From Bacteroidota bacterium (GTDB taxonomy: Bacteria > Bacteroidota > Bacteroidia > 2-12-FULL-35-15), in the NCBI GenBank assembly GCA_040387415.1, contig JAZKDU010000011.1:27499-91498 (forward strand): DNA of 64,000 nt, given 5' to 3'. A program made the translations under genes and the position numbers. The notes beneath the pieces are model-generated. The model ran no database searches and had not been told where the DNA came from. It was given only the letters and a program-made list of their open reading frames with translations. This document shows, one piece after another, positions 44,593-64,000 of this stretch; positions within the stretch are counted from its first letter, which is position 1, and the number at the start of each line of letters is the position of its first letter.

Positions 44593-45915
44593 TTAACGAA
44601 TTAATGAAATGTTTCCTTTTTTCATTAATTTTTCACCAGTATTTAGCTCCAAATCAATATAATAGACAAATACAGCAGGATCCAATGTTTTGCCTCTATA
44701 CGTACCATCCCATATTTTAGCAGGATTTTTACTTTCAAATACTTTCTCTCCCCAACGATCGAAAATATACAAAGCGAAGCTTGAAATGCATTTGTTCCAG
44801 CCATTTAGAATAAACTGATCATTGTGTCCATCACCATTTGGTGAAAATGCGTTTGGTACTGTAAAATCTCCGCAGGCTTCGGTTGCAGCTTCTTTTGTTT
44901 TTAAAGTCCATGGAGCAGAATAATTAATATTAGTAACTGTAACTGTATTTGCAGCGGAATTATTTGTGCCCAAAGTTGGATTTTGCCACTGTGTGCCGTT
45001 CCACATCCAGGCAAGTAAACTATCTTCAATAATAGTGTTGGTGCTGCCACTTATTGGATTCCATTCTGTGTCGCGATACGTAAAAGTAATAGTTGCAACA
45101 GGGTTTGAAGAGTAATTATTGGCATCAACATTCCAAAAGCGGTCGGCACAAATTTCTGCGCTTTCGTTGCCGCTTGCATCATTCAAGTCCGTCACCCCTG
45201 CAGGTAAAGGGCGATTGTTAGGACTCGCATTTACGCTGGTTGGATAAGTTGCAACGGATATATTTCCTGCAACGGTCTCAGTTCCGGCAGCAGTAACGTT
45301 ATAAAGAAAAGGAATGTAATTTCCGGATAGGGTTCCAAAAGGGTAAACATAGTTATTTGCTGTATTTCCAATATTCCATTGAACTCTGCCGTAACCTGCA
45401 ATTGCATCTGTTTCGGAAATAATGTATCCGGTTGTTCTTGTTATAGCGGTCGCAGCCGGATTTGTGATTATACAGGTGTTGCTGTTCAGATCGAGCGGGT
45501 TAAAATTCAATGAAAGAACTCCTGTATTACCTCCAACAACGGTATTAATATCAAGCGTTTTGGTGCCTGAGCCTTGTAAATTAAGGTTATTGAATGTAGT
45601 TGTTTGGGTTCCCATAATTGTTTGGGAAGCACCGTTTAAAATAACAGTCCCCACCGTTGGATCAAGACAGCCCAATGCCTCGTTATTGGTCCAATCACCT
45701 GTAATATACACATCACCCTGGTTATGAATAGCGCCAATATTATTAACTAAATGACCATCAACATACAAAATAGCACTTGAATAAAGTGTTACGTCAGTTC
45801 CACCATTAAAAAAGTTGGTTTGAGATAAGGAAGAAAACGGTGTCAAAATCATAGCCATGATTGTTAAAATCAAGGTCTTGCAAACACCATTAAAAATAGA
45901 AAAACTGTTTTTCAT
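44593..45915 (-). CDS. T9SS type B CTD (gliding motility-associated C-terminal domain) protein
   Basis: Signal peptide to SLSQ; C-terminal VPNAFSPNGDGHND...IFDRWGEKVF...WDGTYRG...KGNISLIR. Confidence 0.92.
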   Translation of the reverse strand: MKNSFSIFNGVCKTLILTIMAMILTPFSSLSQTNFFNGGTDVTLYSSAILYVDGHLVNNIGAIHNQGDVYITGDWTNNEALGCLDPTVGTVILNGASQTIMGTQTTTFNNLNLQGSGTKTLDINTVVGGNTGVLSLNFNPLDLNSNTCIITNPAATAITRTTGYIISETDAIAGYGRVQWNIGNTANNYVYPFGTLSGNYIPFLYNVTAAGTETVAGNISVATYPTSVNASPNNRPLPAGVTDLNDASGNESAEICADRFWNVDANNYSSNPVATITFTYRDTEWNPISGSTNTIIEDSLLAWMWNGTQWQNPTLGTNNSAANTVTVTNINYSAPWTLKTKEAATEACGDFTVPNAFSPNGDGHNDQFILNGWNKCISSFALYIFDRWGEKVFESKNPAKIWDGTYRGKTLDPAVFVYYIDLELNTGEKLMKKGNISLIR

Positions 45916-45951
45916 TGTTATGATTACTAGGTACAAAGTTCAAACTGTTTA

Positions 45952-48198
45952 TTATTTCTCAGATTTAGTACTGAGTATTGTTTCAAGTGTTTTAATACGG
46001 GTATCGTACTCCTGTTCCAGTTTTTTGAGTTTGCTTTGCAAACGATCAATTTCCGTTTGTTGATTTTGATTTAACTCTTTATAACTAGTAATTTCCTGCT
46101 GTTGTTCCTGAATGGCTTTAACCATGGGCATAATAAAATCGGTATAACGCAAAGAGTAAACTTCTTTATCATTTTTTGGCATATCAATTCCCGGGAAATT
46201 AAAACCACTCTCCTTAGCGGCTTTCTCTACATCCTGTGCTAAAAAACCGATACGTATTTCTTTTTCAGCTGCACTATGATCTATCTTATTAACCAAAGAG
46301 TCTGGTGTTCCCCAGATCTTGTGAAGTTCTTTCGGACGAACATTATAGGTTACCGGCTTTAATTTTAAAATAAAATCAAGTCCGGAAACATTTTCTTTAA
46401 CATTTGTTTTGTACCGTGCATCAGAATAGGTTGTCCAGGCAATTCCTCCATTGCTGAATTTTGTAACTGCTGTATTACCAAGTATTACTTCATTACTTCC
46501 GGTACATTGAGCATTTGCAATCCCATATCCCAGCATAGTAACATTGGTGCGGGATGTGGCTGGATAGGAAGTGCTGCCAATAAAAGTACATTGGTTAAAA
46601 TCAAAATTTCCACCGCTGCCATAACCTGCTTTATACCCTAGTGCTGTATTGTCACTTCCGTTGACATTGGACTTTAGCGCCTCCGCTCCAACAGCGGTGT
46701 TAAATACCCCGGAGGTATTGTTAACGAGGGCTTCAGAGCCAGTAGCAGTATTTTGGGTTCCGGTCATATTGGTAGAAAGTGCAAAGTAACCATTGGCCGT
46801 ATTATGGTACCCAGTGGTAGTGTTACCAAGTGCCTGAGATCCCATGGCAGTATTGTAGTCGGCAGTAGTACCTTGAAGTGCTCCCGAACCAACAGCAGTA
46901 TTGAATCTGCCTGTAATATTCGATAAAAGTGCATTAAAACCAATGGAGGTATTGCTGGCGCCAGTAGTATTGTTATATAATGCCTGGTATCCAACAGCAG
47001 TATTGCCTATTGCATTGGTGTTGGACCATAATGCCTGGTAACCAATTGCTGTGTTTTTTCTTCCAATATTTTGACTAATTGGTAATTGTCCTTTAAAGGC
47101 TTCATAACCAAGAGCCACATTGTCATTTATATGGGCAGAACCTGATTTTATATAATTAGCCATTGCGTTATAGCCTATGGCAGTAGCAAATGATCCGCCA
47201 GAGTTGTTACAAAGAGCATTGTGCCCCAAAGCAGTATTTTTACTCCCGATAGTATTAGAATATAGGGCGCTGTCTCCCATGGCAGCATTTCCAGTTCCTG
47301 TTGTATTGGAATAAAGTGCCTGGTAACCGTTTGCTGTATTGCTTGTTCCGGTAGTAACCGCATTTCCGGATTGATATCCGTAAAAAGTGTTAAATAATGC
47401 AGGATCAATTCTTCCTGATTTTTGATTGTTCACTTTTATATTAAAAGGGACATTATCAATAGTCCCAATAAAGTTAGTGCCGTCAACCGTGCCGGTATTG
47501 CCGGTAATGGTCCAATGAGTTCCTACATCAGTACCAGTTGCACCTGTTGTGCCTATAGTACCTGTATCTCCCGTTGATCCTATACTGCCAGTGCTTCCTG
47601 TATCACCTGTGGCTCCAGTAGTACCAACATTCCCTGTACTTCCATTGTTACCGGTATTTCCTGTAATTCCTATATCGCCCGTTGAGCCAGTACTTCCAAC
47701 ATTACCAGTTGATCCGTTTAGCCCTGTATTTCCTGTAACTCCTATAAGTCCATCATTTCCGGTAGATCCAGTAACGCCATTTGTACCAGCCCCAGTAGAA
47801 CCTGTAAAACCAATTATACCCGCAACTCCAGCAGAACCAGTTGGTCCTGTATATCCTGTTATTCCGGACCCTCCCGAAGTACCGTCACAAAGGGATTTCC
47901 AGTTATTTGTAATACCCTTCCAATAAAAGAAACAGGCAGAATCAGTATCATAAACCAATAAACTATTCGCAGGAGCCACAATAGCCAATCGCTGCAAGGC
48001 GGTCATTCGGGGAACAAGCATTCCTTTGTTATGAAAAGGGCTGGCATCTATATCAAGCAATGCAGATGGGGCAGGTGTTAACGTACCAATACCTATATTG
48101 CTGTTTTGGGCATAACTTTTTGCAAATGGATTAAAGCAAAACCTAAATAATAAAATGAAAAATAAGTAATGAAACTTCTTTATTATGATTTTTCGCAT
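45952..48198 (-). CDS. Fibre-like protein 1: N-module, collagen-like Gly-X-Thr, 17-aa NTAxGxxAL repeats, peptidase S74 chaperone
   Basis: Signal peptide to SYAQ; SDARYK..V...[21 protein letters not shown]..coiled coil. Confidence 0.88.
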
Positions 48199-48331: not shown

Positions 48332-48371
48332 AATAAAAAAGGAAACAGTAATTGCTGTTTCCTTTTTTATT
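48332..48371. terminator. Bidirectional-type intrinsic terminator after the 48403 gene
   Basis: AATAAAAAAGGAAACAG-TAATTG-CTGTTTCCTTTTTTATT perfect stem. Confidence 0.88.
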
Positions 48372-48402: not shown

Positions 48403-49740
48403 TTATCTGATCAATGAAATGTTTCCTTTTCTTTGGATTTTATCACCACCATTAACATTGGCATTCAGGAAATAAACAAATACGTTTGGATCTAATGTTT
48501 TTCCTCTGTAAGTGCCATCCCATGACTTTCCAGGATCACTGCTTTCAAAGACTTTTTCTCCCCAACGGTCAAAAATATTTATAGAGAAATCAGAAACACA
48601 ATTGTTTAACCAACCACGAAGTACAAATAGATCATTATGTCCATCATTATTTGGCGAAAAGGCATTGGGAACGGTATAGTCACCACAAGCTTCAGGAGGT
48701 ACATCTCTTGATTTTAAAGTCCAAGCTGCAGAATAGTCAATCCCCGTCATACTCACCGTATTTCCTGCTAAATCAAGTAATCCAAAAGGAGGGTTCTGCC
48801 ATTGAATTCCATCCCATCTCCAGGCACGAAGACTGTCTTCAACAATATCATTTGTACTGCCGCTTGTTGTATTCCATTCCAAATCACGATAGGTAAGGCT
48901 TATGTTAGCAGTAGGATTTGTGGAGTAATTATTAATATCAGTTATCCAGAATCTGTCAGCGCAGGATTCAGCTCTGTCAGTGCCACTTGCATCATTTAAG
49001 TCTGAAACTCCGGCAGGTAAAGGACGATTATTAGGACTTGACGTAACACTTGTTGGATAGGTTGCAACAGATATATTACCATTGGCTGTTTGTGAGCCAT
49101 TTGCATTAACATTGTATACTACAGGAATATAAGTTCCTGATAAGGTTCCAAAAGGAATAGTATAGTTACCTGTTGAATTTCCAATATTCCATTGAAGTCT
49201 GCCATAGCCGGCAATAGGATCTGTTTCAGAAACGATATAACCGCTTGTACGTGTTATTGCTAAAGAAGAAGGATTTGTTATTTCACATACTTTACTGTTC
49301 AAATTAAAAGGACTAAAATTTAAAGAGAGTATTCCGGTGTTTCCACCAACAATTGTATTGATATTAAGTGTTTTTGTACCTGATCCCTGGCAATCTAAAT
49401 TATTAAATGTTGTGGTTTGTGTTCCCTGGATAAGCTGGGAAGCACCATACAGAATAACAGTTCCGGTTGTAGGGTCCAGACACCCAGATGGTTCGTTGTT
49501 TGTCCAGTCTCCTGTTAAGTAGATGTCACCCTGATTATGAATGAAACCAGTAGGTTCATTTATAACATGCCCGCCCACGTATAAAATAGTACTCGGATTA
49601 ATAGCGATATCAATACCGCCATTATAAAAATTAGTGGGCTGGGAAATGGAGAGAAAAGGCGTTAAAACACTTAATAACACTATAGAAACAAAGCGTGAGT
49701 GTATAAGTGAAATATATGGAAAATGTAATTTTTTTATCAT
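48403..49740 (-). CDS. T9SS type B CTD protein, paralog of 44593..45915
   Basis: Same IHNQGD.Y.TGDWTNN, PNNRPLPAGV.DLNDASG, ADRFW and VPNAFSPN...KGNISLIR motifs; start 49740 or 49749 uncertain. Confidence 0.9.
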   Translation of the reverse strand: MIKKLHFPYISLIHSRFVSIVLLSVLTPFLSISQPTNFYNGGIDIAINPSTILYVGGHVINEPTGFIHNQGDIYLTGDWTNNEPSGCLDPTTGTVILYGASQLIQGTQTTTFNNLDCQGSGTKTLNINTIVGGNTGILSLNFSPFNLNSKVCEITNPSSLAITRTSGYIVSETDPIAGYGRLQWNIGNSTGNYTIPFGTLSGTYIPVVYNVNANGSQTANGNISVATYPTSVTSSPNNRPLPAGVSDLNDASGTDRAESCADRFWITDINNYSTNPTANISLTYRDLEWNTTSGSTNDIVEDSLRAWRWDGIQWQNPPFGLLDLAGNTVSMTGIDYSAAWTLKSRDVPPEACGDYTVPNAFSPNNDGHNDLFVLRGWLNNCVSDFSINIFDRWGEKVFESSDPGKSWDGTYRGKTLDPNVFVYFLNANVNGGDKIQRKGNISLIR

Positions 49741-49997
49741 TTTTTGCATATTTATGTTATAAAGATATATCATTTTAACGGCTTTTCAAAATTAAATTTG
49801 TTATTTTTTTAGTGTTTTTCAATATTCGATGCTTGGTGTTTTTGTATATAAAAAACACGTTATCTATTTTTACCTATTCCTGCTCCGTTTTAGTTGAATG
49901 TCGAAACAATTTTTTTTATAACTTCCCACTGCGATTTGATTCTCAATATACATTTTCCAGTATTTAATATCGAAAGAATAAATTAAAATAGTGAATT

Positions 49998-50936
49998 ATG
50001 AAAAATCTGTTTATGCTGGTTGTAGTAGGTTGGATGCAACTATTTGTAACATTTGCTCAAAAAAGTGAATTAGGTTTAGAACAAGCTCAGATAAAGGGAG
50101 AGGAGTATATAAATAAAATTTTGATGAGCAATATTGGCGGAAAAGTAAAAGTTAAAAGTATTTCGGAAGAGGATTGTCTTTATAAGCTTATTATAGAAAC
50201 CAACGGACAGGAATACATTTCATACATGTCCAAAGATGGAAAAAAATTTTTTCAAACTGGAAGAGATATTGATATGGAGATGAAAAGATATATTGATGAA
50301 CGTACAACAGTGAAATTAGTGAAACCCAAAGTTGAACTTTTTGTAATGAGCTATTGTCCGTATGGTATACAAATGGAAAAAGGTATTTTACCCGTATTGG
50401 AAACTTTAGGAAATAAAATTGATTTCGAATTGAAGTTCTGTTCCTATGCAATGCACGATCAAAAAGAATTAACCGAACAATTAAGAGAGTTTTGCATTCA
50501 AAAGCAGTATCCGGAGTTATTTATAAATTATTTAAGCTGTTTTCTGGAAGAAGGAAATTCAGCAAAATGTTTAGTAAAGTCAGGGATAGATACGATAAAA
50601 CTGAACAGCTATATAGCCGCTACGGATAAGGAGTACCACGTTATGGAACAGTTTAAAGACAACAGCACCTGGTACATGAATAAATACCCGAGCTTCAATA
50701 TTTATAAGGAGGATAATATAAAATATAATTTAAAAGGCTCGCCCAATCTGATAATAAATGGTAAGAAAATGCCTTCAGGAAGAGACCCTCAAAGCCTTAT
50801 GGAATTAATAAGTTCGGCATTTATTGAGCCGCCTGCAGAATGTAAAACCAAATTATCGTCTGCAAACCCATCTCCAGGTTTTGGATCAGCCAACGCAGCA
50901 CCAGGCCCAAATCAGGAGTGTAATGGAAGTAAGTAG
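49998..50936 (+). CDS. Exported thioredoxin-fold (GILT/DsbA-like) protein
   Basis: Signal peptide; PKVELFVMSYCPYG motif, GSPNLIING cis-Pro-like loop, several further Cys. Confidence 0.7.
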   Translation: MKNLFMLVVVGWMQLFVTFAQKSELGLEQAQIKGEEYINKILMSNIGGKVKVKSISEEDCLYKLIIETNGQEYISYMSKDGKKFFQTGRDIDMEMKRYIDERTTVKLVKPKVELFVMSYCPYGIQMEKGILPVLETLGNKIDFELKFCSYAMHDQKELTEQLREFCIQKQYPELFINYLSCFLEEGNSAKCLVKSGIDTIKLNSYIAATDKEYHVMEQFKDNSTWYMNKYPSFNIYKEDNIKYNLKGSPNLIINGKKMPSGRDPQSLMELISSAFIEPPAECKTKLSSANPSPGFGSANAAPGPNQECNGSK

Positions 50937-50997: not shown

Positions 50998-52953
50998 CTA
51001 CTGACAAGACCCATTACATTGTGTTATACCAGTCATATCAGGAACGTGCACATAATGCGTACATCCGGTTGTAGGGACTACTTTCGTATAAGAATCTTCT
51101 ATAGCATAACCAGCACCTGATGAATCAAAGCATGAACCATTGGGAGGTTGAGGATAATGAAAAGGATCATAATAAGCGTAACCAATATACGTACAGGTAG
51201 GCCCTGTATACTCAACAAAGGAGTCGGAATTAGCACCATTACAATCTCCCGGTACATTACCGTAGTATATACCCACAAACGAAGCACATCCGTAATTGTC
51301 ATCACATCCTGGTTGTAATTGGGATGTGCCTTTATCACAAGCCGCACCCACGTTAGATACGCAGCAGGATGCAGTTGTTTGCGTTAAGGTTGTGGCTACT
51401 GAATTTTCGCAGCTATTATAGGCCCAAACATATAACGTGTAAGCAGTATTACAGGTGAGACCAGTTTGAGTATAGGTAGGAGTAGCTAACACATTAACAC
51501 CAACTCCTGGATAAGTGCTGGAAGTACTCCATTGATAGCCTGCTGCACCGGAAACTGTGTTCCAATTCCAAACAATTTGTGTTGCAGAAGGTGTATTGGC
51601 GCCTGCTACCGGAGCGGCCAGTGTGGAACTAACAACTACAGATGAAGTACTAACAGGCGCAGCGGAACCGCATGCATTGCTTGCTGTTAATGTATATGCG
51701 CCAGCTTCGGCAGATGTGGTATTGCTTATGGTTGGGCTTTGCGAAGAAGAGGTAAAACCGTTTGGCCCTGTCCACGCCCAGGTTGTGGCACCTGTGGCAC
51801 TTCCGGTTAGCGTTAGTGTTGTTCCCGGACAAATTGGATTTGGCGAAGCAGATGCGGTTACGGTGGAAGGTAATGCTGTAACGGCTAGAGTGACAGTTAC
51901 CGGTGCAGATGAACCACATGAATTACTTGCTGTTAAAGTATATGTCCCCGCGCCTGCTAATGTTATAGCTGTTATGGATGGGTTTTGCTGAGCGGAGGTA
52001 AATCCGTTGGGGCCCGTCCAACTCCAGGTTGCAGCTCCTGTAGCATTCCCGGTAAGATTTGCAGTTGCACTTTCACAAACCGGATTGGCAGTAGCAGCAG
52101 CAACTACAGAGGCTGGAGATGTGGAACATGCCGCTCCGCAGGACATGTTAACCCATGCATTTCCAATACTATCCCACCATTCATAACAATTGGTTGTGGT
52201 GTTAAAAATAAGCAATGAATGAGCTGGAGAAGCAATAGCATTGCGTTGAGTTGTGGTTAAGCGGGGTACAAGCACTCCCATATTTGTGCTCGTGATATCC
52301 AGTTTTGCTGAACCATCAGGCGCTGAATTGGTATTAATTCCAACATTCGATCCATTATCATATATACTGGAATTACACATATCTGTTGGGCTAGTGAATT
52401 TTGTTACATAATTCGCTGCTGCTGTATTACAGATTGTACCAGGCCCCGTTGCGCCTGTTATCCCTGCTGTTCCTGTGGGGCCCATACTGCCCGTGAAACC
52501 ATTGATTCCGGCTGTTCCACTTGCTCCTGTTACACCATTTGTTCCAGCCGTTCCGGTTGCTCCGCTAGCGCCAGTATGTCCTGTAGAACCTATCACTCCA
52601 TTGGTTCCGGCTACGCCTGTGCTACCGGTATTACCTGTTACTCCAGCACCAACACTTTGGTTTAAACCGCATAAAGATTTCCAAGCTGTTGCAGCGGAAC
52701 TCCAGTAAAAAAAACAAGACGAATCCGTATCAAAAACTAATAAACTATTTGCAGGAGAATTTATAGCAATCCGTTGAAGAGCAGTCAATCGAGGAATCAA
52801 TAAACCTTTGTTGTTTGATTGGTTTCCATTAATGTCCAACAATGCAGAAGGATCCGGAGTTAATGTACCAATACCTACACTGTTGGTTTGAGCAAAAGAG
52901 GATATGGAGATTAGTATAAATAATATAGTATAAATGAACAGTAATTTTCTCAT
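50998..52953 (-). CDS. Fibre-like protein 2: N-module, collagen, second module copy, two Ig/PKD-like repeats, FN3, Cys-rich tip
   Basis: Likely ATG 52953 ([12 protein letters not shown]); [10 protein letters not shown] repeats; [29 protein letters not shown]3. Confidence 0.85.
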
Positions 52954-53016
52954 GAAAGAAGAATTCAAATTGTACATTGGATTATGATTTAATAAAAGTA
53001 AACTATAATTTAACAT

Positions 53017-55452
53017 CTAATAAAATGAATTCCATGTAGTTCCATCAAAACCTTCAAATTTATTTAATGTTGTATTAAATCGAATCATCCCTGTAGCAGG
53101 ACTAGCGGGTCTTTGAGCTGTAGTACCAACAGGTACAATAACTGCACCTGTTCCCACCACATCTAATTCACTTCGAGGGGTAGTGGTGCTGATACCAACA
53201 GTACCCGTTGAAAAATCTCCGTAAATTAAAGGAGGATTCGTACTGTTATTTGCAATATAAAGTTTATCAGATCCGGTTTCATTATAACCAGCCCTGTAGC
53301 CGAGAAACACATTGTTGCTGCCTGTGGAATTACTATATCCAGCATTGTGCCCGAGGGCAGTATTGTTTAAACCGCTGGTATTAGTATATAGGGACTGCGT
53401 CCCACTGGCAGTATTTCGGGCTCCAATGGTATTGAAATTAAGTGCACCATATCCCGTGGCAGCATTGAAGTATCCTGTGGTGTTGGTTTGAAGTGCAACA
53501 TAGCCGATAGCCGTGTTTTGATATCCCGTAGTATTAAAACGCATAACATTTGTTCCAATGGCTGTGTTTTCGTATCCTGTAGTATTATTAAACAGTGTAT
53601 GCATTCCTGTAGTTGCATTACCATCTCCAATTGTATTACTCAAAAGAGCTTGATAACCAATAGCCGTATTTCTGTTTCCTGTATTGTTAGCAGCAGTATT
53701 AGAGCCCCGCAATGCCTCATAACCAACCGCAACATTCTGATTATCAAAACCGACAGATGTGCTATTAGCATATTTCATAGCATTCGCTCCAATAGCGGTA
53801 GCGTTGCGTCCTGATACATTATAATAAAGAGCTCCTTCTCCCACAGCAGAATTATATGAACCTGCTGTATTGGAAAGAAGCGCTCCGTTACCAAATGCAG
53901 AATTGAAATTACCGGAAGTATTGGATAAAAGCGGACCATTGCCTACCGCGGTATTGCCAGCACCCGTTGTAACAGGGTTCAATGCACCATAACCAAATGA
54001 GTTATTACCATTTCCCGAACGGTCAATCAAGCCTGATTGAGTATTTGCCACTTTAAAAACTAAATTTTGCGCATCAGTTGTTCCAATAAAATTGGCACCT
54101 GCTGTGGTGCCTGAATTGCCAGTAAGTGCCCAGCCACTTCCACCACTCGATGTTTGCCAACTTCCCTGGCCATTGGCATCAGAAGTCAGCACTTTTCCTG
54201 CTCCCTGATTTCCATCTACAATTTTTATTGTTGTTCCTGAAGCTCCAATTACTTCCAGTTTAGCACCGGGACTCGTAGTATTTATACCAACATTACCATT
54301 TCTGTCAATTCTCATTCTTTCCACTAACGTACCGGAAGCATAAGTAGCAAAATAGATGCCTCCAACACCACTGGGTCCGGCAACTTCTCTTACAGCGCCT
54401 ATAGTTGCTTCGGTATTCGTTAAACCTGCTGCGCTTGAAAGTTGAAATGCGATGCCAGAGCGTGTGCCAATACCTGTATTGTTTTGTGAAAGCATGAGTA
54501 TTCGGCCATCTCCCGGAGAGGTTGCTGCATCATTCACTAATCCATGAATAGGAAATCCGTACGATCCCGGAATAACAGCCGTGGATCCTAAAATTGAATT
54601 GCCCCAAACACGAAGTGTTTCCTCGGGAGTACTAATACCAATACCTACATTTCCTGCAGATGTAACCCTGATTTTTTCCGAATTATTGGTTGCCACTACT
54701 ATATCTGTAGCGTCTGTAGTTCCTATAAAATTTGTTCCCGGTGTAGTACCTGCGTTGCCTGCAAGTGTCCAGTGTGTGCCCACATCTTCACCAGTAGCAC
54801 CTTGTATTCCCGTAGTGCCAGTTGACCCGGTAATACCTGCTCCTGTAGTACCTGTAAATCCTGGTTCTCCTGTTGCACCCGTTGAGCCGGTAACTCCTGA
54901 TCCTGTTGCACCTGTTGTACCTACATCTCCTGTGCTGCCGGTAACTCCTGTATTAGCAGTAACACCTGTTGCCCCTAGAGTTCCTCCTCCGGTAGCGCCA
55001 GTTATACCTATATTCCCAGCAGCACCCGTGAAACCAGTTTTTCCGGTGGTGCCTATAGATCCTGCGGTACCAGTAGCTCCGATGACTCCAGTACCTGTAA
55101 AACCCGTTGCTCCCATTATACCGGCACCGGTAGTTCCTGTGTTACATAATGATTTCCAGCTGGTGGTTAATGAATTCCAGTAAAAGAAGCAGGAAGAATC
55201 AGTATCAAATACCAGCAAACTGTTTGCCGGAGAGGCAATGGCTAAACGTTCTGTAGCATTGAGCCGAGGAATAAGCAAGCCTTTGTTATTTGCAGGTGCA
55301 GCATTAATATCCACCAGGGCAGAAGGATCTGGAGTTAATGTACCTATACCTATATTATTAGTTTGAGCGAAACTTTGGATTACTGCAAACAGAAAATTGA
55401 TGTATAAGAAAAAAATGAAGGTAGATCGAAGTGCATTTCTGATTTGTTTCAT
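53017..55452 (-). CDS. Fibre-like protein 3: N-module, collagen, shaft repeats, 17-aa repeats, C-terminal module-like cap
   Basis: Likely ATG 55452; ends [35 protein letters not shown]; no S74. Confidence 0.85.
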
Positions 55453-55566
55453 TATAAAACTGTTATTTTCCAATACTTAATAACCATGCTAACTATTAAT
55501 TTATGGTTACTGAATTATTTGAAACTGTTTAAATTTACTGTTTATTTTGTTATAGCTTCCCACTCC

Positions 55567-55671: not shown

Positions 55672-58191
55672 TTATTTTTTGGAATTATTCATTAATGTTT
55701 TTAATTCCATTATTTCAAATTTCATGTTTTTAAATTCTAATTCTGAACGGGCTTTTAAATTCAAATTTTCCTGCTGCATTTTTTCAATGATAGTCTTTTG
55801 GTTGGTGATTGTAGTTGATAAACTATCTATCATCTGCTGCTGTTCCTGCACTGCTTTTACCAATGGAACAACAAATTGAGAATAAGCAACACTGTAATTT
55901 TCATTGGTATTTTTTGGTGCATACAATCCGTCAAAGTTAAAGCCAGTGTTTTTAGCAGCCTGTTCCACTTCCTGAGCAATAAAACCCGTACGGATAATTG
56001 CTGTTGATGGCTCATAATCAGTGTTTTTATTACGTTCTCTCCTGATACTATCGGGCATGTTTTGCATCAGGAATTCATCAAATTTTTTGGTGTCGAAATT
56101 ATAAGTAACCGGGCGAAGTTTGGTAATAAATTCTAACCCTTTTACTTCTTCCTTTATGTTGTATTTGAAACGGCCATCGCTAGGGACATAGTTATTTGCC
56201 TGGCTTTCTATTTCGGTAACGGTGGCATTTCCAATTCTTACTTTATCACTTGCGTTAACAATGGCGTTGTAGCCTAATGCTGTTGCATTACTTAAAGCAG
56301 TAGAGCCTACATCAGCACCGCCACCTATAGCTGCATTATTATCACCGGTGGTGTTAATATAAAGAGCAGCGTTTCCAATAGCCGTATTATTATTTCCTAT
56401 GGTATTATCATGCATGGCGTTTTGACCAACGGCTGCATTAAAGTTTCCGGTAGTATTGTATAAAAGACAAAAATAGCCATTGGCTGTATTGTTGGAGCCG
56501 CTTGTATTATAAACCAGGGCATTTGCACCTGAAGCCGTGTTATAGGTACCATTGCTATTAACAAGCAAGGCATTCAGTCCAATGGCAGTATTACCGGTAC
56601 ATATGTTACAAGCATTCAATGCTTTTGCACCCACAGCAGTATTTGCTCCAAACGTTACTGAATAAAGGGCTTTGTAACCAACAGCGGTATTATTACTCCA
56701 TACGGTGTTTGAATACAAAGCCTGATAACCTACTGCAACAGAACCACCATTTGTACCCGCAGTGGTATTTGAATACAATGCCTGGTAACCAAGAGCAGTG
56801 TTTTGATCTCCTGTTGTATTACTGTATAGGGACTGGTAACCATTTGCGGTATTCCCAAAACCTATTGTATTTGAGTATAAGGATTTACTTCCAATTGCCA
56901 AATTGCCAACAGCTTCAGTGGGGGAGGAAGTGCCCGTACCATTGTTGTAAAGTGCAGAGTCACCAATGGCTAAAAGGCTGTTAAGGGTTGTGCTTTTAAA
57001 CATAGCATTACTGCCAATTGCAATATTAGAATATCCTGTTGTATTGTAATGGAGAGCAGCTATTCCATATGCAGTATTATTGCTTCCCGTTGTGTTGGAA
57101 GTTAGCGTTCTGGATCCATTGGCTGTATTTCCATTTCCTGTTGTATTTTCATCCAGAGCGTTGGAGCCGGTTGCAACATTTTCTGATCCTGTGGTATTGG
57201 CACCCAATGCATTCTGACCGGAGGCGGTATTTACCCCACCAGTAGTGTTTGCACTCATCGCACTTCGCCCAATAGCCGTGTTTCCAAGTCCAGAAGTATT
57301 ATAATATAAGGCATAGGCCCCTACGGCAGTATTTACATGACCATCAATATTCGAATAAAGAGCATTCCTGCCAATAGCGGTATTTTGGTAACCTGTAGTG
57401 TTTACTGAGCCAACTTTATCGCCAATAAACGTATTATTATTACCTGTGTTTACTTTTCCGTTCATATATCCAAAAAAGGTATTGGATAATGCAGGATCTA
57501 TTCTGCCGGCCTGTTCATTATTTACTTTTATAGTTAATGGCACATTGTCAATAGTACCAATGAAATTGACACCATCTACAGTTCCTGTATTACCGGTAAT
57601 TGTCCAATGAGTGCCCGAATCAACTCCGGTAGCTCCGGTGCTGCCGGTAATTCCGGCCCCTGCACCTGTTGGTCCCGTGACTCCCATTGTTCCGGCAGCT
57701 CCCGTTTCACCAGTGCTTCCGATTGATCCTGTTCCAGTACCAGTGGCTCCGGTAATTCCAATCAACCCTATAGCGCCTGTTTCACCAGTGCTGCCCGTTA
57801 CTCCTGCACCTGTTGAGCCTGTCGTACCAATTATACCCGGGGCACCAGTACCACCTGTAATTCCAGCAGCTCCTGATCCGGAAGAGCCACTATTACATAA
57901 GGATTTCCAGATTGTAGCATTCCAGTAAAAAAAGCAGGCCGAATCAGTGTCAAATACTAATAAACTATTAGCAGGTGATGGAATAGCCAAACGTTGAGAG
58001 GCTGTCATCCTAGGAATAAGTAATCCTTTATTATTTGCAGGGCTGCCATTTATATCGAGAAGAGCTGAAGGTGCAGGAGTTACTGTTCCAATACCTACAT
58101 TTTGGGATAATGAATATTTTGGTACAAATAGGTTCCAGATGAAAAGAATTATACTAATTGTAAAAAGAGTACTGTTTTTAAAGCTAACCAT
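55672..58191 (-). CDS. Fibre-like protein 4: N-module, collagen, long 17-aa repeat stalk, peptidase S74 chaperone
   Basis: Signal peptide to SLSQ; SDGRFK..I...[21 protein letters not shown]. Confidence 0.88.
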
Positions 58192-58310: not shown

Positions 58311-60326
58311 TTATTTTTTTTTCAGAATTTCTATTTCATTTTGCATTTCTTTTATCATCCTTTGCTGCTCTATAATCTGCAACTGCATGTTTTCAACAGC
58401 TTCTAAAGTTTGAAATGACATTCGGGTGATATTTATAGTGCCTTTATGTTCTTTTTCCTCCATTTTTGCAGAAGTTAGCCATGGCAGATGCCCTTTTCTT
58501 TTGATAAATTTTTCAACATCCTCAAGCGAATAAAATGTATAATCCGGCTTAAAAACATAATCTGGTTTAGAATAAACTGATCCATCCATTGCACCGCAGG
58601 ATCCATCATAATAAATACTACCTGTAGCACGTATATCACCGCATACATCAAGTGTATAAGCAGGGCTGGAAGTGTTAATTCCCACAAATCCATTTAAATT
58701 TACCCTAAGAAATTGTTCTGTCGGGCCATTAATTCCGCCCCCTCTACCAACTATAAAAAGCGGGTTATTAAGATATGCTCCGCTAAGTGCGGCATTATTT
58801 CCATCCGTAGATACGGCTAATACGGGGGTTGCGCTTACATAATAGGAGGTGTTATTTGTTCCCATTGAACTAAAAATTGCAGCTCCATCATCATATACCG
58901 TTAATCTTCTGGTTGGATTTACAGTTCCAATACCAATTTTGCCGGCAGAAGTTACTCTAAACCTTTCTAAATTGTTAGTAGCAACAACAAAATCTTTTGT
59001 ATCCTTTGTTCCGATAAAATTATTGTTTACAGCACTGCCTAAAAGTGCTGTGGAAGGAGTGGTTCCGGTATCCCCTGTAGTAAGCCATCCTGCATTAGAA
59101 ATGTTGGCCCAGCTTAAATTACCAACGCCATCATTTTGCAAAAAAGAAGATGGAGTGCCCTGTGCTGCTGGAAGTACTAGTGAATAAGATGTGGTGGTAG
59201 TGCCTGATTGTATATTCAGTGTATTTGTATTTGCTGCATTATAAAACAGGATGGACCCATTAGCTGCCGCAGCACCTCCCAAACCTCCAAATGAAATACC
59301 TGAGCTGATTTGCCCTGCAGCGTGTATTAATGAGGCAGGCGCTGTAGTACCTACCCCTACATTTCCATTGTGAGTTATGGTCATTGCATTTATAGGTGTT
59401 GCAGCTGTTGCTGTTCTAAATGAAATTGCAGGTTTTGTAATGATGGGATCATTATAAATATTATCAATATAAGTATCTCCATTATTTGTATAGTTTATTA
59501 GAAAGCCTTCCGTCATTCCAAAATTTTCTCCGGTAAATCTAATGGCAGCATTATTTAAGCCTGAAATTCCAGGGCTTCCGGGACTTAATCTAAATTCAAC
59601 AGGGCCCGGATTGGCAATATGCAGCTTAACAGCGGGGGAGGATGTTCCAATACCCACATTGCCATTAGCTAAAATTCTCATGTTTTCAGAATTATTTGTT
59701 TTAACAACCAGATCTATGGCATCTGTAGTTCCTATAAAATTGGTTGCTGCATCTGTAGATGCATTACCCGTTATTGTCCAATGGGTTCCAAGATCTGCAC
59801 CTGTAGCCCCTATTGCACCTGTGAATCCTGTTAAACCCGTTGTGCCAATATCACCTGTAATGCCGGCAATTCCAGCGGCACCTGTTTGCCCAGTAACACC
59901 TATTGCACCAGTTGTTCCGGTTACACCTGTTAATCCAACGGATCCGGTAATACCGGTGGAACCAGTTTGGCCCGTAATACCTATTGTACCAGTTGTTCCT
60001 GTATTGCCTGTTGTGCCATTATTCCCGACAGTTCCTGCATTACACAGTGATTTCCAGTTTGTGGTAATTGCATTCCAATAAAAAAAACAGGCCGAATCGG
60101 TATCAAATACCAACAAACTATTGGCTGGGGAAGGTATAGCAATGCGCTGAACAGCTGTAAGCCTTGGCACTAAAACACCTTTATTATTACCCGAACTGGC
60201 ATCGACATCCAGCAATGCCGATGGAGCAGGAGTTAGCGTACCAATACCAATGTTATTGTTTTGCGCGAAGGATGGGGAACAAATTAAGATCCACACCAAT
60301 AAACAAGTATAAAAATATGTTTTCAT
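58311..60326 (-). CDS. Fibre-like protein 5: N-module, collagen, GxVGIGT shaft units, PDYVF-type C-terminal coiled-coil domain
   Basis: Signal peptide to SFAQ; [10 protein letters not shown]...LEDVEKFI...HLP..SA; terminal coiled coil. Confidence 0.86.
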
Positions 60327-60343
60327 ATAGTACTATTTTAATG

Positions 60344-61906
60344 TTATCGTATTCCAATTGCAAACCAATTTACAACACCGCTGCCACTCTGTTTCATTTG
60401 AATGTCGTTGCCGCTTACCTGAAAAGTAATTGTACTGTTGCCGTTGGGAACAGCATCCTGGGTAAAAATAACAGAAGAGCCTAAACCATCATCATGACCA
60501 ACCATTGCAGTAGCTACTCCTCCAACTGCTGCAGTTGCATAAATCAAACATGCATGACTTGATGATAATGTCATAATGGTTACATACGTATTGGAAGCTA
60601 AATTAGGTGAACCTGCTTGTGAGCGAAAGCCCGTTGCAGTGGCTGTTCCAGAAACTTCAAGTTTGGAAGAGGGGCTTGTGGTTCCTATACCTACGTTGCC
60701 AGTCACATCATCAATTGCGATTGGAATGAGTCCTGATACAGAGTTATACAATATAAATTTATTTGCAACTGCGCCACTTGCATCGCAACCTAAAAGCCAA
60801 TATTTTGAATTATCTGATGGATAATCATACCTAATATGATTATCGCCTGCATTTGAAGATGTCAGCCTCATTACCGCTACACCATTAACAGTGGGTGTAT
60901 TTAGATGAAGTCCGTGGGTTGGAGTTGCTGTACCAATACCAACATTACCACCACTTGTAATGATCATAGCAGGATCAATTGGCGTTCCGGCAAGTCCAAC
61001 GGCAAAACGTAAATCTCCGTTAATATCATTCAAGGAGCCTGAAGAATAAATTTTTGCTCTGTTTACAGAAGAAGATGCAGCTCCGAAAGTAATCACATTA
61101 TTTTCTGTTGGAAGGTTAGGTTGTAACCTGAAAATGGAATTTCCGTCACTTTTAATTTCCATAGCAGTGCTTGGCGTTAGGGTACCAATACCAATATTAC
61201 CAAGTGAAGTAACTCTTATTTTTTCAGTATTATTTGTGTAAATTGCAAAATCCTGTGCATCCGTGGTCCCCAAAAAGTTTGTTCCTGCATTGGTACCGGC
61301 ATTACCTGTTATTGTCCAATGTGTTCCAATATCGGAGCCTGTAGCCCCGGTAGTTCCTATATTGCCTGTAACACCGATGCTGCCCGTAGTTCCAACCGAA
61401 CCTGTAACACCAGTTGTTCCTGACACTCCGGTAGCGCCAATTCCTCCACTATTTCCAGTTGTTCCTATTAGTCCTATACCTGTGGCACCCGTAGCGCCAA
61501 TTCCGCCATTAATGCCGGTTGCTCCAATTAGTCCTGTGCCTGTTGCACCAGTAGTGCCAATCCCTCCGGTATTACCAGTTGCTCCCGCTATGCCCGTACC
61601 CGAATTACATAACGATTTCCAGCTTGAAGCCACGCTACTCCAGTAAAAAAAACAAGCAGAATCCGTATCAAATACTAATAAACTATTTGCGGGAGAGGGA
61701 ATAGCAAGCCGTTGGAGAGAAGTCATGCGCGGAACAAGCACCCCTTTGTTATTACCGGAGCTGGCATCAATATCCAATATAGCGGATGGGGCAGGAGTGA
61801 GGGTACCGATACCTACATTATTGTTTTGTGAAAACAGTTTACTTTCAGTTTCTATCAGAAAGGAGAAAATAAAAAAGATCGCGAAAACGTAAACTATTTT
61901 TTTCAT
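60344..61906 (-). CDS. Fibre-like protein 6: N-module, collagen, shaft units, small beta-rich tip
   Basis: Signal peptide to LFSQ; three GN(I/V)GIGT.TP/SP units; ends ...[10 protein letters not shown]. Confidence 0.86.
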
Positions 61907-61933
61907 CGGTTTTAAATTAATCTTTAATAAAAA

Positions 61934-64000
61934 TTACCTGTCAGACTTTATTCCTAAGCTTTCTTCCAGTTTTTTTAAACGATCGTTGTACTCTTGTTTT
62001 ATAGTACTGTTTTGTGTATTTAATTCATTAATTTTAAGTTTCAACTCTTCTATCATTTGCTGCTGCTCCTGCACCGCTTTTACAAGAGGAACAACAAATT
62101 CTGAATACCGTAAACCATACAAGCCATTTTCTGATTTTGGTTTATCTACTCCGCTGAAATTGTAACCAATTTGTTTTGCAGTTTGTTCCACTTCCTGTGC
62201 AATAAATCCGGTCATCGTAATCTTTTCAATGTCATATTTGCCTTCCCAGTCTTTGTCATCTTTAATGCCAAGTATTTCGTTTTCACGATGAATATTGAAG
62301 CGATAGGTAACAGGACGTAGTTTTGTTATGAAGATCAGTCCTGGAACATTTTCATTAATGTCGTCTTTGATGCGTTTGTCGCTAAGTCCCGTCAATCCAA
62401 CCTGACAGCGGAGTGTGCCTATACTGGAATTTCCAAGCACAATATCATTGCTTGCAATTACTGTGGCATTATACCCTATTGCTGTGGAGTTTCCATAAAC
62501 AGTGCCAGCATTAAAAGCATTATAACCCAATGCAGTGTTGTAGGATCCGGTAGTATTGTTAAACAGCGCAGTATTTCCGATTGCAGTGTTGTAACTTCCG
62601 GTAGTATTGTAATATAGGGAATTAACACCATCGGCAGTACTGAAACTTCCCGAAGTATTTGCCCTAAGAGTATTTACTCCAGTTGCAGTATTTTGATTTC
62701 CGGAAATATTTAATAACAATGCTGCATTTCCATTAGCTGTATTATAGTCACCAATTGTGTTGTTGGTAAGGGTATTCGCTCCATCAGCTGTATTGTAATT
62801 CCCTGTGGTATTAGCGTAAAGTGCAGCGGAACCGTTAGCATTGTTTTGAAATCCGGTTGTATTGGAAGTGAGTGCGCTGGTTCCGCTTGCGGTATTTTGT
62901 TGGCCCGAGGTATTAGAATGCAAGGTGTGATACCCAAGTGCCGTATTGAAAGTCCCTGTATTGGCTGCAGCTGTTACTGACCCTTGTAACGCTTCATAAC
63001 CCACGGCAACATTGTAATTTGTAAATGGTGTGGCAGTGCTATTCGAATACCTCATGGCGTTAGTTCCGATTGCCGTTGCATTAATACCCGAAGAATTTGA
63101 AGCAAGCGCATTTGCTCCAATAGCGGTATTATTACTTCCATCCGAATTTGAATAAAGTGCTGAAATACCGAATGCCGTATTCGATGATCCTGAAGAGTTT
63201 GTAGTAAGCGCATTACTTCCTGCAGCAGTATTATAATTACCGGAGCTATTTGAAGTAAGTGCAGACCAGCCGTTTGCAGTATTGTTATTTCCGAATGCGT
63301 TAGAATAAAGAGCTCTATATCCACTAGCGGTGTTAAGCCCACCTGTGGAATTCGCCCATAGAGTCTGGTAACCGAGGGCTGTATTCTCATTTCCTGTATT
63401 GCTGAAAGCCCCCCCTGATCCTCTTAATGCTTCGTATCCAACTGCTACGTTGGAATTGGTAAACGGAGTAGATGAATTGTAAGTGTATAACATGGCATAC
63501 ATACCAATTGCAGTGGCATTGTTACCTGCAACATTAGAATAAAGTGCATAAGCGCCATTAGCCGTATTGTTACTACCAGTTGTATTGTATCGCAGGGCTT
63601 CGCGTCCTGTTGCTGTGTTATCATTACTGGTTGTATTATCAGCAAGAGCAAAGTAGCCGTTTGCGGTATTGGCAGAGCCAGTTGTATTTACAAAAAGTGC
63701 TTTACTACCTGTCGCTGTATTATTTTCCCCGGAGGTATTGGCTGTAAGTGCTGACCATCCGCTTCCTGTATTGTTATTTCCGGTTGTGTTAGCATTAAGT
63801 ACAGAAAATCCGCTCGCGGAGTTATTGTAACCGGTTGAATTCGCCCAAATAGTTTGATAACCAAGAGCAGTATTTGCATTGCCGGTTGACCCACCTAAGG
63901 CTCCTTTTAATGCTTCAAACCCTAAAGCTACATTGTAGTTTGTAAACGGAGTGCTTGTACTGTTGGTATTCATCATCGCATTAATACCAATGGCAGTAGC
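61934..64000 (-). CDS. Fibre-like protein 7, partial (start beyond the window): 17-aa repeat stalk and peptidase S74 chaperone
   Basis: Frame open to 64000 (ATAIGINAM precedes the track Met); SDKRIK..I...[13 protein letters not shown]. Confidence 0.88.
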   Translation of the reverse strand, partial: ATAIGINAMMNTNSTSTPFTNYNVALGFEALKGALGGSTGNANTALGYQTIWANSTGYNNSASGFSVLNANTTGNNNTGSGWSALTANTSGENNTATGSKALFVNTTGSANTANGYFALADNTTSNDNTATGREALRYNTTGSNNTANGAYALYSNVAGNNATAIGMYAMLYTYNSSTPFTNSNVAVGYEALRGSGGAFSNTGNENTALGYQTLWANSTGGLNTASGYRALYSNAFGNNNTANGWSALTSNSSGNYNTAAGSNALTTNSSGSSNTAFGISALYSNSDGSNNTAIGANALASNSSGINATAIGTNAMRYSNSTATPFTNYNVAVGYEALQGSVTAAANTGTFNTALGYHTLHSNTSGQQNTASGTSALTSNTTGFQNNANGSAALYANTTGNYNTADGANTLTNNTIGDYNTANGNAALLLNISGNQNTATGVNTLRANTSGSFSTADGVNSLYYNTTGSYNTAIGNTALFNNTTGSYNTALGYNAFNAGTVYGNSTAIGYNATVIASNDIVLGNSSIGTLRCQVGLTGLSDKRIKDDINENVPGLIFITKLRPVTYRFNIHRENEILGIKDDKDWEGKYDIEKITMTGFIAQEVEQTAKQIGYNFSGVDKPKSENGLYGLRYSEFVVPLVKAVQEQQQMIEELKLKINELNTQNSTIKQEYNDRLKKLEESLGIKSDR

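Follow-up and report, generated by a model that had tools for sequence, protein, structure and literature searches.

An array of paralogous exported fibre genes with a PF26696 head beside T9SS type-B cargo genes in the chromosome of an uncultured Bacteroidota bacterium

Seven paralogous fibre genes, all on the minus strand, run from 45952 to beyond 64000 of the window (the whole 64-kb stretch of DNA that we analysed). We consider it probable that they constitute a domesticated, Bdellovibrio-MAT-like and long-established chromosomal family of exported fibres, most likely homotrimeric, which probably act as adhesins with different binding ends. The proteins share a common order: a signal peptide ending in A/S-Q, a module of about 75 aa, a Gly-X-Y stretch rich in Thr, a THW junction, and then a stalk and tip that diverge between paralogues. 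Surface-protein genes of type IX secretion (T9SS) lie next to the fibre genes and may explain how the fibres reach the surface. The features of the locus are as follows.

44593..45936, minus strand: T9B-447, a gene with a C-terminal domain (CTD) of the T9SS type-B kind, 15 nt downstream of F1; the called start at 45852 gives 419 aa.
45952..48198, minus strand: F1, 748 aa; N-terminal module 47884-48108, 39 Gly-X-Y triplets; distal part a 17-residue-repeat stalk and Peptidase_S74 at 46207-46425.
48332..48371, no strand: hairpin of 18 pairs with A and T runs on its flanks, terminator-like in both directions.
48403..49773, minus strand: T9B-456, a gene with a T9SS type-B CTD (CHU_C / TIGR04131); the called start at 49740 gives 445 aa.
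49998..50936, plus strand: exported ORF inside the array, 312 aa, with a CPYG motif.
50998..53016, minus strand: F2, 672 aa (659 aa from the called start at 52977); N-terminal module 52666-52890, collagen; distal part a second, internal module copy at 52135-52353, Ig_2 and PKD_6, and a Cys-rich end.
53017..55473, minus strand: F3, 818 aa (811 aa from the called start at 55452); N-terminal module 55138-55365, collagen, stalk; C-terminal cap at 53023-53208, a diverged second module copy.
55672..58191, minus strand: F4, 839 aa; N-terminal module 57889-58104, interrupted collagen; distal part a 17-residue-repeat stalk and Peptidase_S74 at 55945-56181.
58311..60326, minus strand: F5, 671 aa; N-terminal module 60036-60263, 27 Gly-X-Y triplets without interruption; distal part a stalk with homology to the MAT fibres of Bdellovibrio, then a PDYVF tail and coiled coil.
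60344..61906, minus strand: F6, 520 aa; signal peptide, N-terminal module 61601-61828, Gly-X-Thr collagen, THW junction; distal part a stalk that carries the motif GNVGIGT..P, then a small beta tip.
61934..64000, minus strand, running past the window edge: F7; 17-residue-repeat stalk and C-terminal Peptidase_S74 at about 62180-62383.

Gene calls and signal peptides agree with an earlier, sequence-only reading of this DNA, which had proposed at least seven co-oriented, modular, Sec-exported fibre genes with the seventh cut by the window edge. An identical Logan contig allowed about 1.6 kb to the right of 64000 to be read. This sequence is more of F7, now at least 1220 aa, with collagen followed by NTHWIITGN; the N-terminus of F7 lies beyond the contig end. 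The interval given for the array, 44593-64000, needs correcting, as it also includes the two genes with a type-B CTD and the plus-strand ORF. The two type-B proteins and the tight linkage to T9SS type-B cargo genes were absent from the earlier reading. The 312-aa ORF has only sub-threshold matches to thiol oxidoreductases (GILT, DsbC_N), and whether it is part of the fibre system is uncertain.

In the six complete fibres, an n/h/c signal peptide ends in SYA, SFA, SLS or LFS and is followed by Q, and across the family A/S-Q is followed by N-N-N-(I/V)GIGT. These ends fit the Bacteroidetes Q-rule, by which signal peptidase I cleaves before Gln (PMC5837995, PMC10653852). The signal peptide and the module were said to be common to all six complete ORFs, and alignment bears this out. 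Over their first 250 residues mean column identity is 55%, with the invariant block GIGT.TP.PSA..D...NKG.L.PR....R.AI..PANSLLV.DTDS.CFFYW...WKSLC. A module profile finds every copy with E values of 1e-41 to 1e-44, far beyond chance.

The module corresponds to Pfam PF26696 (PTL_trimer), for which precomputed matches exist on F2, F3, F5 and F6 (from the identical Logan contig) and on 120 of the 120 homologues listed. PF26696 comprises about 66,000 representative proteins (cluster representatives), and the module cannot be called undescribed; the design principle of the array is known from MAT fibres (PMC10769870). The module is a small fold common to phage tail fibres and tailspikes. Its AF2 model (pLDDT 84) finds its best PDB fold matches in the CBA120 TSP3 C-terminus, TSP4, HylP, Mtd and the trimerisation domains of collagen XV/XVIII. 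Its matches in BFVD, at up to 42% identity, are fibre, collagen and S74 proteins of tailed phages. The module also contains a conserved Cys pair.

Additional copies occur internally in F2 (residues 222-294) and at the C-terminus of F3 (residues 756-817), and proteins of the PF26696 family carry up to 18. Structure comparison presents the module chiefly as a trimerisation unit, one also used inside fibres and at their C-terminal ends. The common base-docking role proposed earlier is supported only indirectly. Pairwise identity is 76% between N-terminal copies and 49% between second copies in the same proteins, indicating that the N-terminal copy is under extra constraint, for example from a shared partner. 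Synonymous sites in the module are saturated (pS 0.58-0.79), confirming the divergence reported earlier, while dN is 0.12-0.25 and dN/dS 0.05-0.17. Judged from these substitution patterns, the paralogues are old and under purifying selection.

Each complete fibre has 23-39 Gly-X-Y triplets in all; position Y is Thr in roughly one half to two thirds of them, and Pro is almost nil. F1, F2, F3 and F5 pass the curated Pfam Collagen cut-off and F6 sits exactly on it at 27.2 bits; the stretch is interrupted in F3, F4 and F6. The Gly-X-Thr collagen of the earlier reading is confirmed as Gly-X-Y repeats. F4 falls below the cut-off, and with so little Pro and such interruptions a true triple helix is not certain. 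THW follows the collagen in F1, F3, F4, F5 and F6; the earlier reading, too, had given five fibres that continue in this way.

Stalk repeats have a period of 17 residues. The stalks had been likened to YadA-like head repeats, and we considered a trimeric autotransporter adhesin. We rejected it: the YadA repeat is 14 residues long, and the fibres have no Pfam match to YadA_head or to an autotransporter C-terminal beta-barrel anchor at E<=0.01. PHROG tail-spike, tail-fibre and virion-structural families match the fibres with E values down to 1e-90. Together with the homology of F5 to MAT fibres, the module fold and an ordinary, syntenic chromosomal setting, these matches support the view that the building blocks are domesticated and tail-fibre-like.

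The tips divide into S74 (F1, F4, F7) and non-S74 (F2, F3, F5, F6) types. Peptidase_S74 scores 39.0, 39.5 and 33.5 bits in F1, F4 and F7 (cut-off 22), and the catalytic motif SDxxxK is intact at the start of each match (SDARYK, SDGRFK and SDKRIK, respectively). In these three proteins S74 is predicted to act as an intramolecular chaperone that folds the stalk and then cleaves itself. The PDYVF tail and coiled coil of F5 match no known family. None of the fibres matches a C-terminal T9SS sorting domain (Por_Secre_tail, CHU_C, TIGR04131), and none has a lipobox or barrel anchor; they therefore fit no known route for passing the outer membrane.

T9B-447 and T9B-456 are paralogues of each other, and the hairpin separates T9B-456 from the F1/T9B-447 unit. 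Each combines a signal peptide with C-terminal matches to CHU_C (69.2 and 63.6 bits; cut-off 27) and TIGR04131 (55.5 and 56.9 bits; cut-off 35), the features of T9SS type-B cargo. The T9SS exports such cargo, and PorP/SprF-like proteins anchor it at the cell surface (PMC9143113, PMC12618676). The AF2 model of T9B-447 shows short strands N-terminally, two beta-sandwiches and then the CTD; fold comparison gave no functional clue.

This family of type-B cargo proteins, about 440 aa long, adjoins fibre genes in many lineages. The distance between its genes and fibre genes is 3-170 nt twice in the window and in the related loci L003, L008, L017, L021, L029, L030, L031 and L036, with gaps of only 3-40 nt in several lineages. 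In the reverse test, fibres adjoined five of the six T9B homologues on long contigs. The linkage is not universal, as T9B is missing from the six-fibre array L006 and L061 has T9B without a fibre. Some of the adjacency could also be background, given how common CHU_C proteins are in these genomes. PorP_SprF and PorE-like genes stand beside fibres in the L031, L014, P0154 and P0137 loci, and thioredoxin-like genes recur near fibre genes in related loci; the window itself contains no cognate PorP/SprF gene. By gene linkage, these recurring neighbours suggest that the fibres are displayed with the help of the T9SS.

A working model can be drawn from these observations. The fibres would cross the inner membrane by Sec, with signal peptidase I cutting before Gln, as the signal peptides predict. 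From its fold matches, the PF26696 module with its Cys pair would trimerise and set the register of the collagen-like part, and the THW junction would open into a beta-helical stalk. The distal end would vary: in F1, F4 and F7 the S74 chaperone would fold the stalk and then self-cleave, and the others would end in Ig/PKD domains plus a knob rich in Cys, in a cap formed by a second module, in a PDYVF tail or in a small beta tip. The N-terminal module, under stronger constraint, probably docks all paralogues to one shared partner. By linkage, the best candidate for this partner, or for the surface route, would be the adjacent type-B cargo protein.

In its fullest form this model would describe an unrecognised Bacteroidota appendage, in which CTD-less, Sec-exported trimeric fibres of collagen and beta-helix depend on a dedicated type-B cargo protein and its PorP/PorE-like anchor for passage through the outer membrane or attachment to it, with the PF26696 head as universal plug and the paralogues as interchangeable tips. 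We put this piggy-back use of the T9SS forward tentatively and regard it as rather unlikely. The papers that we consulted give no example of type-B cargo displaying a partner that lacks a CTD of its own.

The strongest alternative, possible although not probable, is that these are exported trimeric fibres whose N-terminal module serves only as a folding and trimerisation nucleus. The type-B neighbours would then be unrelated surface-protein genes at the same place, and the fibres would either leave the cell or be kept there in another way (matrix, sheath, vesicles, or binding to LPS or peptidoglycan). The fold matches are indeed to trimerisation units, including those of collagen XV/XVIII, and a base dock is impossible for modules that are internal, C-terminal or present in up to 18 copies. 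The exceptions L006 and L061 and the wealth of T9SS cargo genes in these genomes point the same way. Against it stand the much higher conservation of N-terminal copies compared with the second copies that these proteins contain, and adjacency to one passenger family across distant lineages, with its short gaps and five of six reverse look-ups.

Quite improbable, in our view, is that the fibres stay in the envelope as periplasmic or outer-membrane-associated structural elements that are not adhesins. They do carry a Sec signal only, with nothing recognisable as a signal for outer-membrane passage, and periplasmic thioredoxin-like genes recur beside them. However, tips such as Ig_2, PKD_6 and the phage receptor-binding-type ends are typical of extracellular binding proteins, and a constant head with diverse tips is the pattern expected for ligand-binding repertoires. 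Given the rise per residue of collagen and beta-helix, the predicted fibres (tens of nm of collagen plus the stalk) are longer than the periplasm is wide. The homologous fibres of Bdellovibrio are, moreover, located on the surface (PMC10769870).

A last idea is that these are tail fibres of a particle (prophage, tailocin, eCIS or GTA-like), its remaining genes being situated to the right of 64000 or in another part of the genome. The strong PHROG matches, an S74 domain and module fold typical of tailed phages, and the position of the sequence upstream of F7 outside readable contigs would allow this. Within the 64-kb window we found no phage structural, tailocin or eCIS genes (capsid, terminase, sheath, tube, baseplate, spike), in agreement with the earlier reading, and Pfam annotation of the genes at 1-44 kb gives only housekeeping functions and T9SS cargo. 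In the syntenic loci L008 and L017, two fibres and a T9B gene lie between ppk/ppx-type genes and genes for an MBL-rhodanese and a saccharopine dehydrogenase, placing housekeeping genes upstream of the fibres; L062 shares the downstream order of fibre, T9B, MBL-rhodanese and saccharopine dehydrogenase. The canonical N-terminal module is near-absent from phage records (1 weak match in 50,697) and from IMG/VR (2 distant loci). The cytoplasm is where phage and tailocin fibres assemble, and the phage module copy in L060 is internal and without a signal peptide, whereas every complete fibre here has a cleavable Sec signal peptide and the conserved Cys pair. With dS saturated between the paralogues as well, a particle origin is highly improbable.

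A domesticated family of exported fibres is our preferred reading. Many genomes of uncultured Bacteroidota encode exported fibres headed by PF26696, often as tandem arrays; in literature searches we found no experiments on such fibres from this phylum. The puzzle is how a long trimeric protein without a T9SS signal reaches a diderm surface, and an answer that can be tested comes from the conserved neighbour genes. If that answer is true, the range of T9SS display widens and Bacteroidota gain a programmable adhesin set like the MAT fibres of Bdellovibrio, which would matter for attachment to particles, for interactions between cells and possibly for predation or the biology of phage receptors. 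Should the answer be wrong, the locus remains a clear case of domesticated phage receptor-binding modules.

Several known systems resemble the array in part. Tailed-phage fibres and tailspikes share S74 with SDxxxK, the repeat stalks match PHROG tail-spike families, and the C-terminal end of CBA120 TSP3 matches the PF26696 module in both sequence and fold. In contrast to these, the array proteins carry Sec signal peptides, are encoded by chromosomal genes without virion genes, and have the module N-terminally, right after the cleavage site, an arrangement near-absent in phage collections. Bacillus BclA, streptococcal Scl1/Scl2, Legionella Lcl and the collagen-like tail fibres of E. coli prophages likewise have Gly-X-Y flanked by a globular trimerisation domain, Thr-rich as in Bacillus BclA. 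Over the collagen part only, the array fibres match BclA chain 1wck and the SclA, SclB and Lcl models of NCBIfam, with NCBIfam scores far below family cut-offs; the array has other terminal domains and no LPXTG anchor. The host here is a diderm, so its fibres must also cross the outer membrane. The SprB-SprF and PG1035-PorP-PorE modules are matched by the type-B CTDs of both T9B genes, above cut-offs, and by relatives in which the fibre and T9B pair stands beside PorP_SprF and PD40/CarboxypepD_reg/OmpA (PorE-like) genes, a layout published for type-B cargo modules (PMC9143113, PMC12618676). The array fibres differ from type-B cargo in having no CTD themselves.

The closest resemblance is to the mosaic adhesive trimer (MAT) fibres of Bdellovibrio bacteriovorus, which are surface-located and combine a signal peptide, a conserved N-domain, variable S74 and non-S74 tips, many paralogues and a phage tail-fibre origin (PMC10769870). 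Their N-domain is about 130 aa long and beta-rich, and the solved fragments are C-terminal; the paper does not mention collagen (0 occurrences) (PMC10769870). The array belongs to another phylum, its genes are tandem and linked to T9SS type-B cargo genes, and a role in predation is not indicated. Compared by description, its 75-aa PF26696 module and collagen also differ from the MAT N-domain. F4, an S74-type fibre, has no PDB match outside collagen. Both systems proceed from a signal peptide through a conserved N-terminal domain and a beta-helical stalk, predicted to be trimeric here, to interchangeable tips, and both have the S74/non-S74 split and many paralogues per genome. The homology extends to sequence in F5, whose stalk and THW junction match Bd2133 (8ond; residues 313-396, E 3.3e-8) and 8ojn (residues 199-254, E 5.4e-6).

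The seven paralogous fibre genes, F1 to F7, form a real array of modular, exported fibre genes, and the sequence-only reading described it correctly in outline. The range assigned to the array also held two overlooked non-fibre genes, which encode paralogues of 447 and 456 aa with a T9SS type-B CTD (T9B).

Genes of the fibre array (window positions)
61934 to beyond 64000, minus strand: fibre F7, first in transcription order
60344-61906, minus strand: fibre F6, second in transcription order
58311-60326, minus strand: fibre F5, third in transcription order
55672-58191, minus strand: fibre F4, fourth in transcription order
53017-55473, minus strand: fibre F3, fifth in transcription order
50998-53016, minus strand: fibre F2, sixth in transcription order
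49998-50936, plus strand: 312-aa exported ORF, between F2 and the 456-aa gene
48403-49773, minus strand: 456-aa non-fibre gene (T9B), between the 312-aa ORF and F1
45952-48198, minus strand: fibre F1, after the 456-aa gene in transcription order
44593-45936, minus strand: 447-aa non-fibre gene (T9B), last in transcription order

A signal peptide, a head module of about 75 aa rich in invariant positions and a Gly-X-Y stretch are common to all six complete fibres, and a THW junction to five of them. F7 reaches at least 1220 aa on an identical Logan contig, with collagen and then NTHWIITGN. This contig (SRR26324620_8754), the only other one found to carry these genes, stops inside the F7 collagen, short of the N-terminus, and any seventh head module would lie outside the sequence read. 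Between the 456-aa T9B stop and the F1 start, we found an 18-pair hairpin with flanking A and T runs (48332-48371) that is terminator-like in either direction, which implies that the array has at least three transcription units. In a scan for promoters and terminators, sites were no commoner than in shuffled sequence, except for one strong hairpin. Long Pro/Val-rich ORFs on the plus strand over the collagen regions (47549-47926, 54581-55183, 57611-57928, 59542-60081 and 61263-61646) are not genes; they are antisense read-throughs of Gly-X-Thr repeats, produced by the repeat composition.

In the fibre signal peptides, a basic n-region precedes a hydrophobic core of 12 residues (mean Kyte-Doolittle 2.2-3.1), and Gln comes directly after a small-x-small site, clearly marking the fibres as predicted Sec substrates. 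Such a site follows the Q-rule that applies in Bacteroidetes to substrates of signal peptidase I (PMC5837995, PMC10653852), and an A/S-Q three or four residues ahead of (I/V)GIGT is repeated across the fibre family in other genomes. The collagen-like part spans 23-39 triplets, in which Y is mainly Thr and proline is almost absent. Interruptions occur in F3, F4 and F6, and the Pfam Collagen score reaches the cut-off in five of the six complete fibres. Peptidase_S74 exceeds its Pfam cut-off in F1, F4 and F7, where an SDxxxK motif opens each match. The Asn/Thr-rich repeats in the stalks of F1, F3, F4 and F7 had been read as YadA-like head repeats. This reading fails, since they have a period of 17 residues and no YadA_head match in the Pfam scan; instead, their matches are to PHROGs of the phage tail-spike and virion-structural kinds.

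The head module is already catalogued: precomputed annotations name it Pfam PF26696, 'PTL_trimer'. Neither a Pfam scan, in a release without the PF26696 model, nor an NCBIfam scan detected it, and NCBIfam gave only sub-threshold collagen-adhesin matches on the fibres. Literature searches on PTL_trimer or PF26696, and on PTL with tail fibre, turned up neither a paper nor a description. Our module profile scores every N-terminal copy in the six complete fibres at E 1e-41 to 1e-44 and reveals second copies inside F2 (residues 222-294) and at the extreme end of F3 (756-817). As had been proposed, synonymous sites are diverged: among the modules of the six paralogues, synonymous divergence is saturated (pS 0.58-0.79) and dN/dS is 0.05-0.17. 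These data indicate that the module copies are old and kept by selection, and have not been homogenised by recent gene conversion.

A confident AF2 model of the module, built from a 126-sequence alignment (pLDDT 84), consists of a short helix and a three-stranded sheet. Among solved structures, the C-terminal end of the phage CBA120 tailspike TSP3 lies closest by both sequence profile and fold; after it come TSP4, HylP of a streptococcal phage, Mtd of a Bordetella phage and the trimerisation domains of collagen XV/XVIII. All of these structures are trimeric, and the small size of the domain keeps every match weak. Among predicted viral structures, the module matches many tailed-phage proteins with collagen repeats, S74 or tail-fibre character, at up to 42% identity. 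Across 1.84 billion cluster representatives, the profile matched 4,178 proteins at E ≤ 1e-30 and 66,105 at E ≤ 1e-3, the latter, loosest count being inflated because the profile took in some signal peptide and collagen columns. Many copies per protein were often seen among these matches. The matches listed from a profile search of a 5.8-billion-protein set were all fragments of at most 133 aa and give hints of taxonomy, not architectures. The TSP3-type, phage-fibre and multi-copy matches suggest that the module is a general trimerising brick of phage-type fibres, and on sequence grounds the phage ancestry of these parts is well established.

What is particular to the fibres studied here is the placement of the module directly behind a signal peptide. 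In 19 proteins with two copies, pairwise identity is 76% among the N-terminal copies and only 49% among the second copies, indicating that the N-terminal copy is constrained beyond its fold. This conservation is the main indirect support for the view that the head may dock to a shared partner.

The fibres also differ in their ends. Family searches found no family for the F5 PDYVF tail, the F6 tip or the Cys-rich end of F2; matches to Thymidylate_kin, XLF_CC and Tox-REase-5 were below cut-offs, on coiled-coil or tail segments, and were rejected as spurious. The F5 C-terminus (58311-58646), which matched no known family, comprises a PDYVF...HLP tail followed by a coiled coil. The same combination occurs in a 748-aa protein that has no head module (related locus L007, 3681-5927). 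The coiled-coil end of F5 resembles the end of S74 proteins, and the tail and coiled coil together may be an alternative chaperone-like ending.

On the sequence up to 64000 and the related loci, the array is not a prophage. Consistent with the earlier reading, the genes of the 64-kb window include no virion, sheath, tube or baseplate genes. The remainder of the window carries T9SS type-A cargo genes along with ordinary chromosomal genes, for valyl-tRNA synthetase, ComEC, PlsY, PrmA, triose-phosphate isomerase and dihydropteroate synthase. Scanning one genome per species, we found 51 loci, of which almost every one belongs to an uncultured member of the Bacteroidota (Bacteroidia, Chitinophagales and Flavobacteriales MAGs). 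Several loci often occur in one genome and tandem arrays are common, with six genes in L006 and four in L021. L008 and L017 hold just two fibres and one T9B gene, and their upstream border consists of sigma-factor, epimerase and polyphosphate kinase/phosphatase-type genes, identified from sequence without a family search. The downstream neighbours, MBL-rhodanese and saccharopine dehydrogenase, are common to several related genomes. Up to position 64000, the outcome that would have refuted the earlier reading, a prophage, tailocin or eCIS locus in the flanking sequence, did not appear. In its signal-peptide-headed form, the module gave one weak match in 50,697 phage records and is nearly missing from IMG/VR, with two distant loci, one of them a 1129-aa tail fibre with an internal module and no signal peptide. 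The two-fibre syntenic loci L008 and L017 indicate that a conserved chromosomal locus has expanded locally into the seven-gene array.

Elsewhere in the window, the region 30435-41184 is generally rich in surface-protein genes, and three large genes for T9SS type-A cargo cluster there (LRR/SdrD_B; Peptidase_C1 combined with a lectin-like domain; PA14). A 1495-aa ORF between PlsY and PrmA (17403-21890, minus strand) has no Pfam match at E ≤ 1e-4. At 12001-13654 (minus strand), a SUKH-4 immunity-like protein adjoins a DUF2027 and Smr protein; the two may form a small conflict-system pair that has nothing to do with the fibres. A cultured isolate, Polaribacter sp. IC066, encodes a minimal 300-aa relative (L050, 9926-10828, NZ_VORR01000065.1) with a signal peptide ending in AQ, a head module, a short stalk and a C-terminal GMIRYNTTSNKFEGF cap, without collagen and without an adjoining T9B gene. 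This isolate could offer a way into experiments. A Bdellovibrio sp. MAG (L052, 1-3171) encodes a protein of more than 1056 aa with a PF26696-type module near its C-terminus (886-952), indicating that the brick is used in Bdellovibrio fibres too.

The T9B paralogues exceed the cut-offs for the T9SS type-B sorting domain (CHU_C, TIGR04131), and their linkage to fibres is shown at the level of gene neighbourhood. Homologues of the passenger region directly adjoin fibre genes in L003, L008, L017 and L021, and fibre-T9B gaps are 3-170 nt in four distant lineages (L029, L030, L031 and L036). In the reverse direction, five of six T9B homologues on long contigs had a fibre next door and one had none; four of these five fibres carry a PF26696 or module match, and one is collagen-like, read without its N-terminus. 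In several loci, PorP_SprF and PorE-like (PD40/CarboxypepD_reg/OmpA) genes flank the fibre-T9B pairs. Directly beside fibre genes, PorP_SprF is followed by a PorE-like protein with PD40, CarboxypepD_reg and OmpA in L031 (3657-6906), and by one of PorE-like architecture with PD40 and OmpA in L014 (2-2629). Type-B cargo depends on, and stays bound to, cognate PorP/SprF-like proteins, and PorE sits in the same complex (PMC9143113, PMC12618676). The confident AF2 model of T9B (pLDDT 90.6) gave only generic Ig/FN3 tandem (beta-sandwich) matches in Foldseek, with TM below 0.2, and its sequence found no relative in the PDB. In L056 (483-2193), a collagen-like fibre gene is separated from a T9B and PorP_SprF pair by two Fib_succ_major (lectin-like) genes, whose products may be alternative binding subunits.

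A second recurrent fibre neighbour is an exported thioredoxin-like protein of about 425-506 aa. Thioredoxin_8/Redoxin members of about 460-506 aa adjoin fibres in L038 (3095-4615), L042 (3124-4626), L044 (4104-5492) and L006 (17912-19426). The 312-aa exported ORF of the window (49998-50936, plus strand) has a CPYG motif, with sub-threshold matches only to GILT and DsbC_N. Such neighbours would fit both the conserved Cys pair in the module and the tips rich in Cys, a hint that they may be disulfide helpers.

From family knowledge, the head module would nucleate a homotrimer, the collagen-like segment would serve as a spacer, S74 members would fold with chaperone assistance and then cleave themselves, and the variable tips would bind ligands. 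Conservation and linkage suggest that the head may dock to a common partner and that T9B with a PorP-like anchor may provide a route to, or a site on, the cell surface. Pfam and NCBIfam scans found no CTD, lipobox or barrel in the fibres. T9SS-mediated display of these CTD-less proteins is the more novel reading, and we consider it rather unlikely.

Fibres like these did not come up in a literature search combining T9SS, collagen-like and fibre terms. As a system of Bacteroidota that pairs a collagen-bearing PF26696 head with a conserved T9SS type-B partner, the array appears to be uncharacterised. The sequence-only reading had put it forward as a candidate undescribed appendage system; its design principle has already been reported for the mosaic adhesive trimer (MAT) fibres of Bdellovibrio bacteriovorus (PMC10769870). 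These comprise 21 paralogues, all of which carry a signal peptide and a conserved N-terminal domain proposed to bind some element of the surface; their stalks are trimeric and beta-helical, and their tips are S74 or other (PMC10769870). The F5 stalk and THW junction are homologous in sequence to solved MAT fragments (8ond, E 3e-8; 8ojn, E 5e-6). The window fibres are built on the same plan as the MAT paralogues, but they carry another head and an extra collagen segment, and belong to another phylum.
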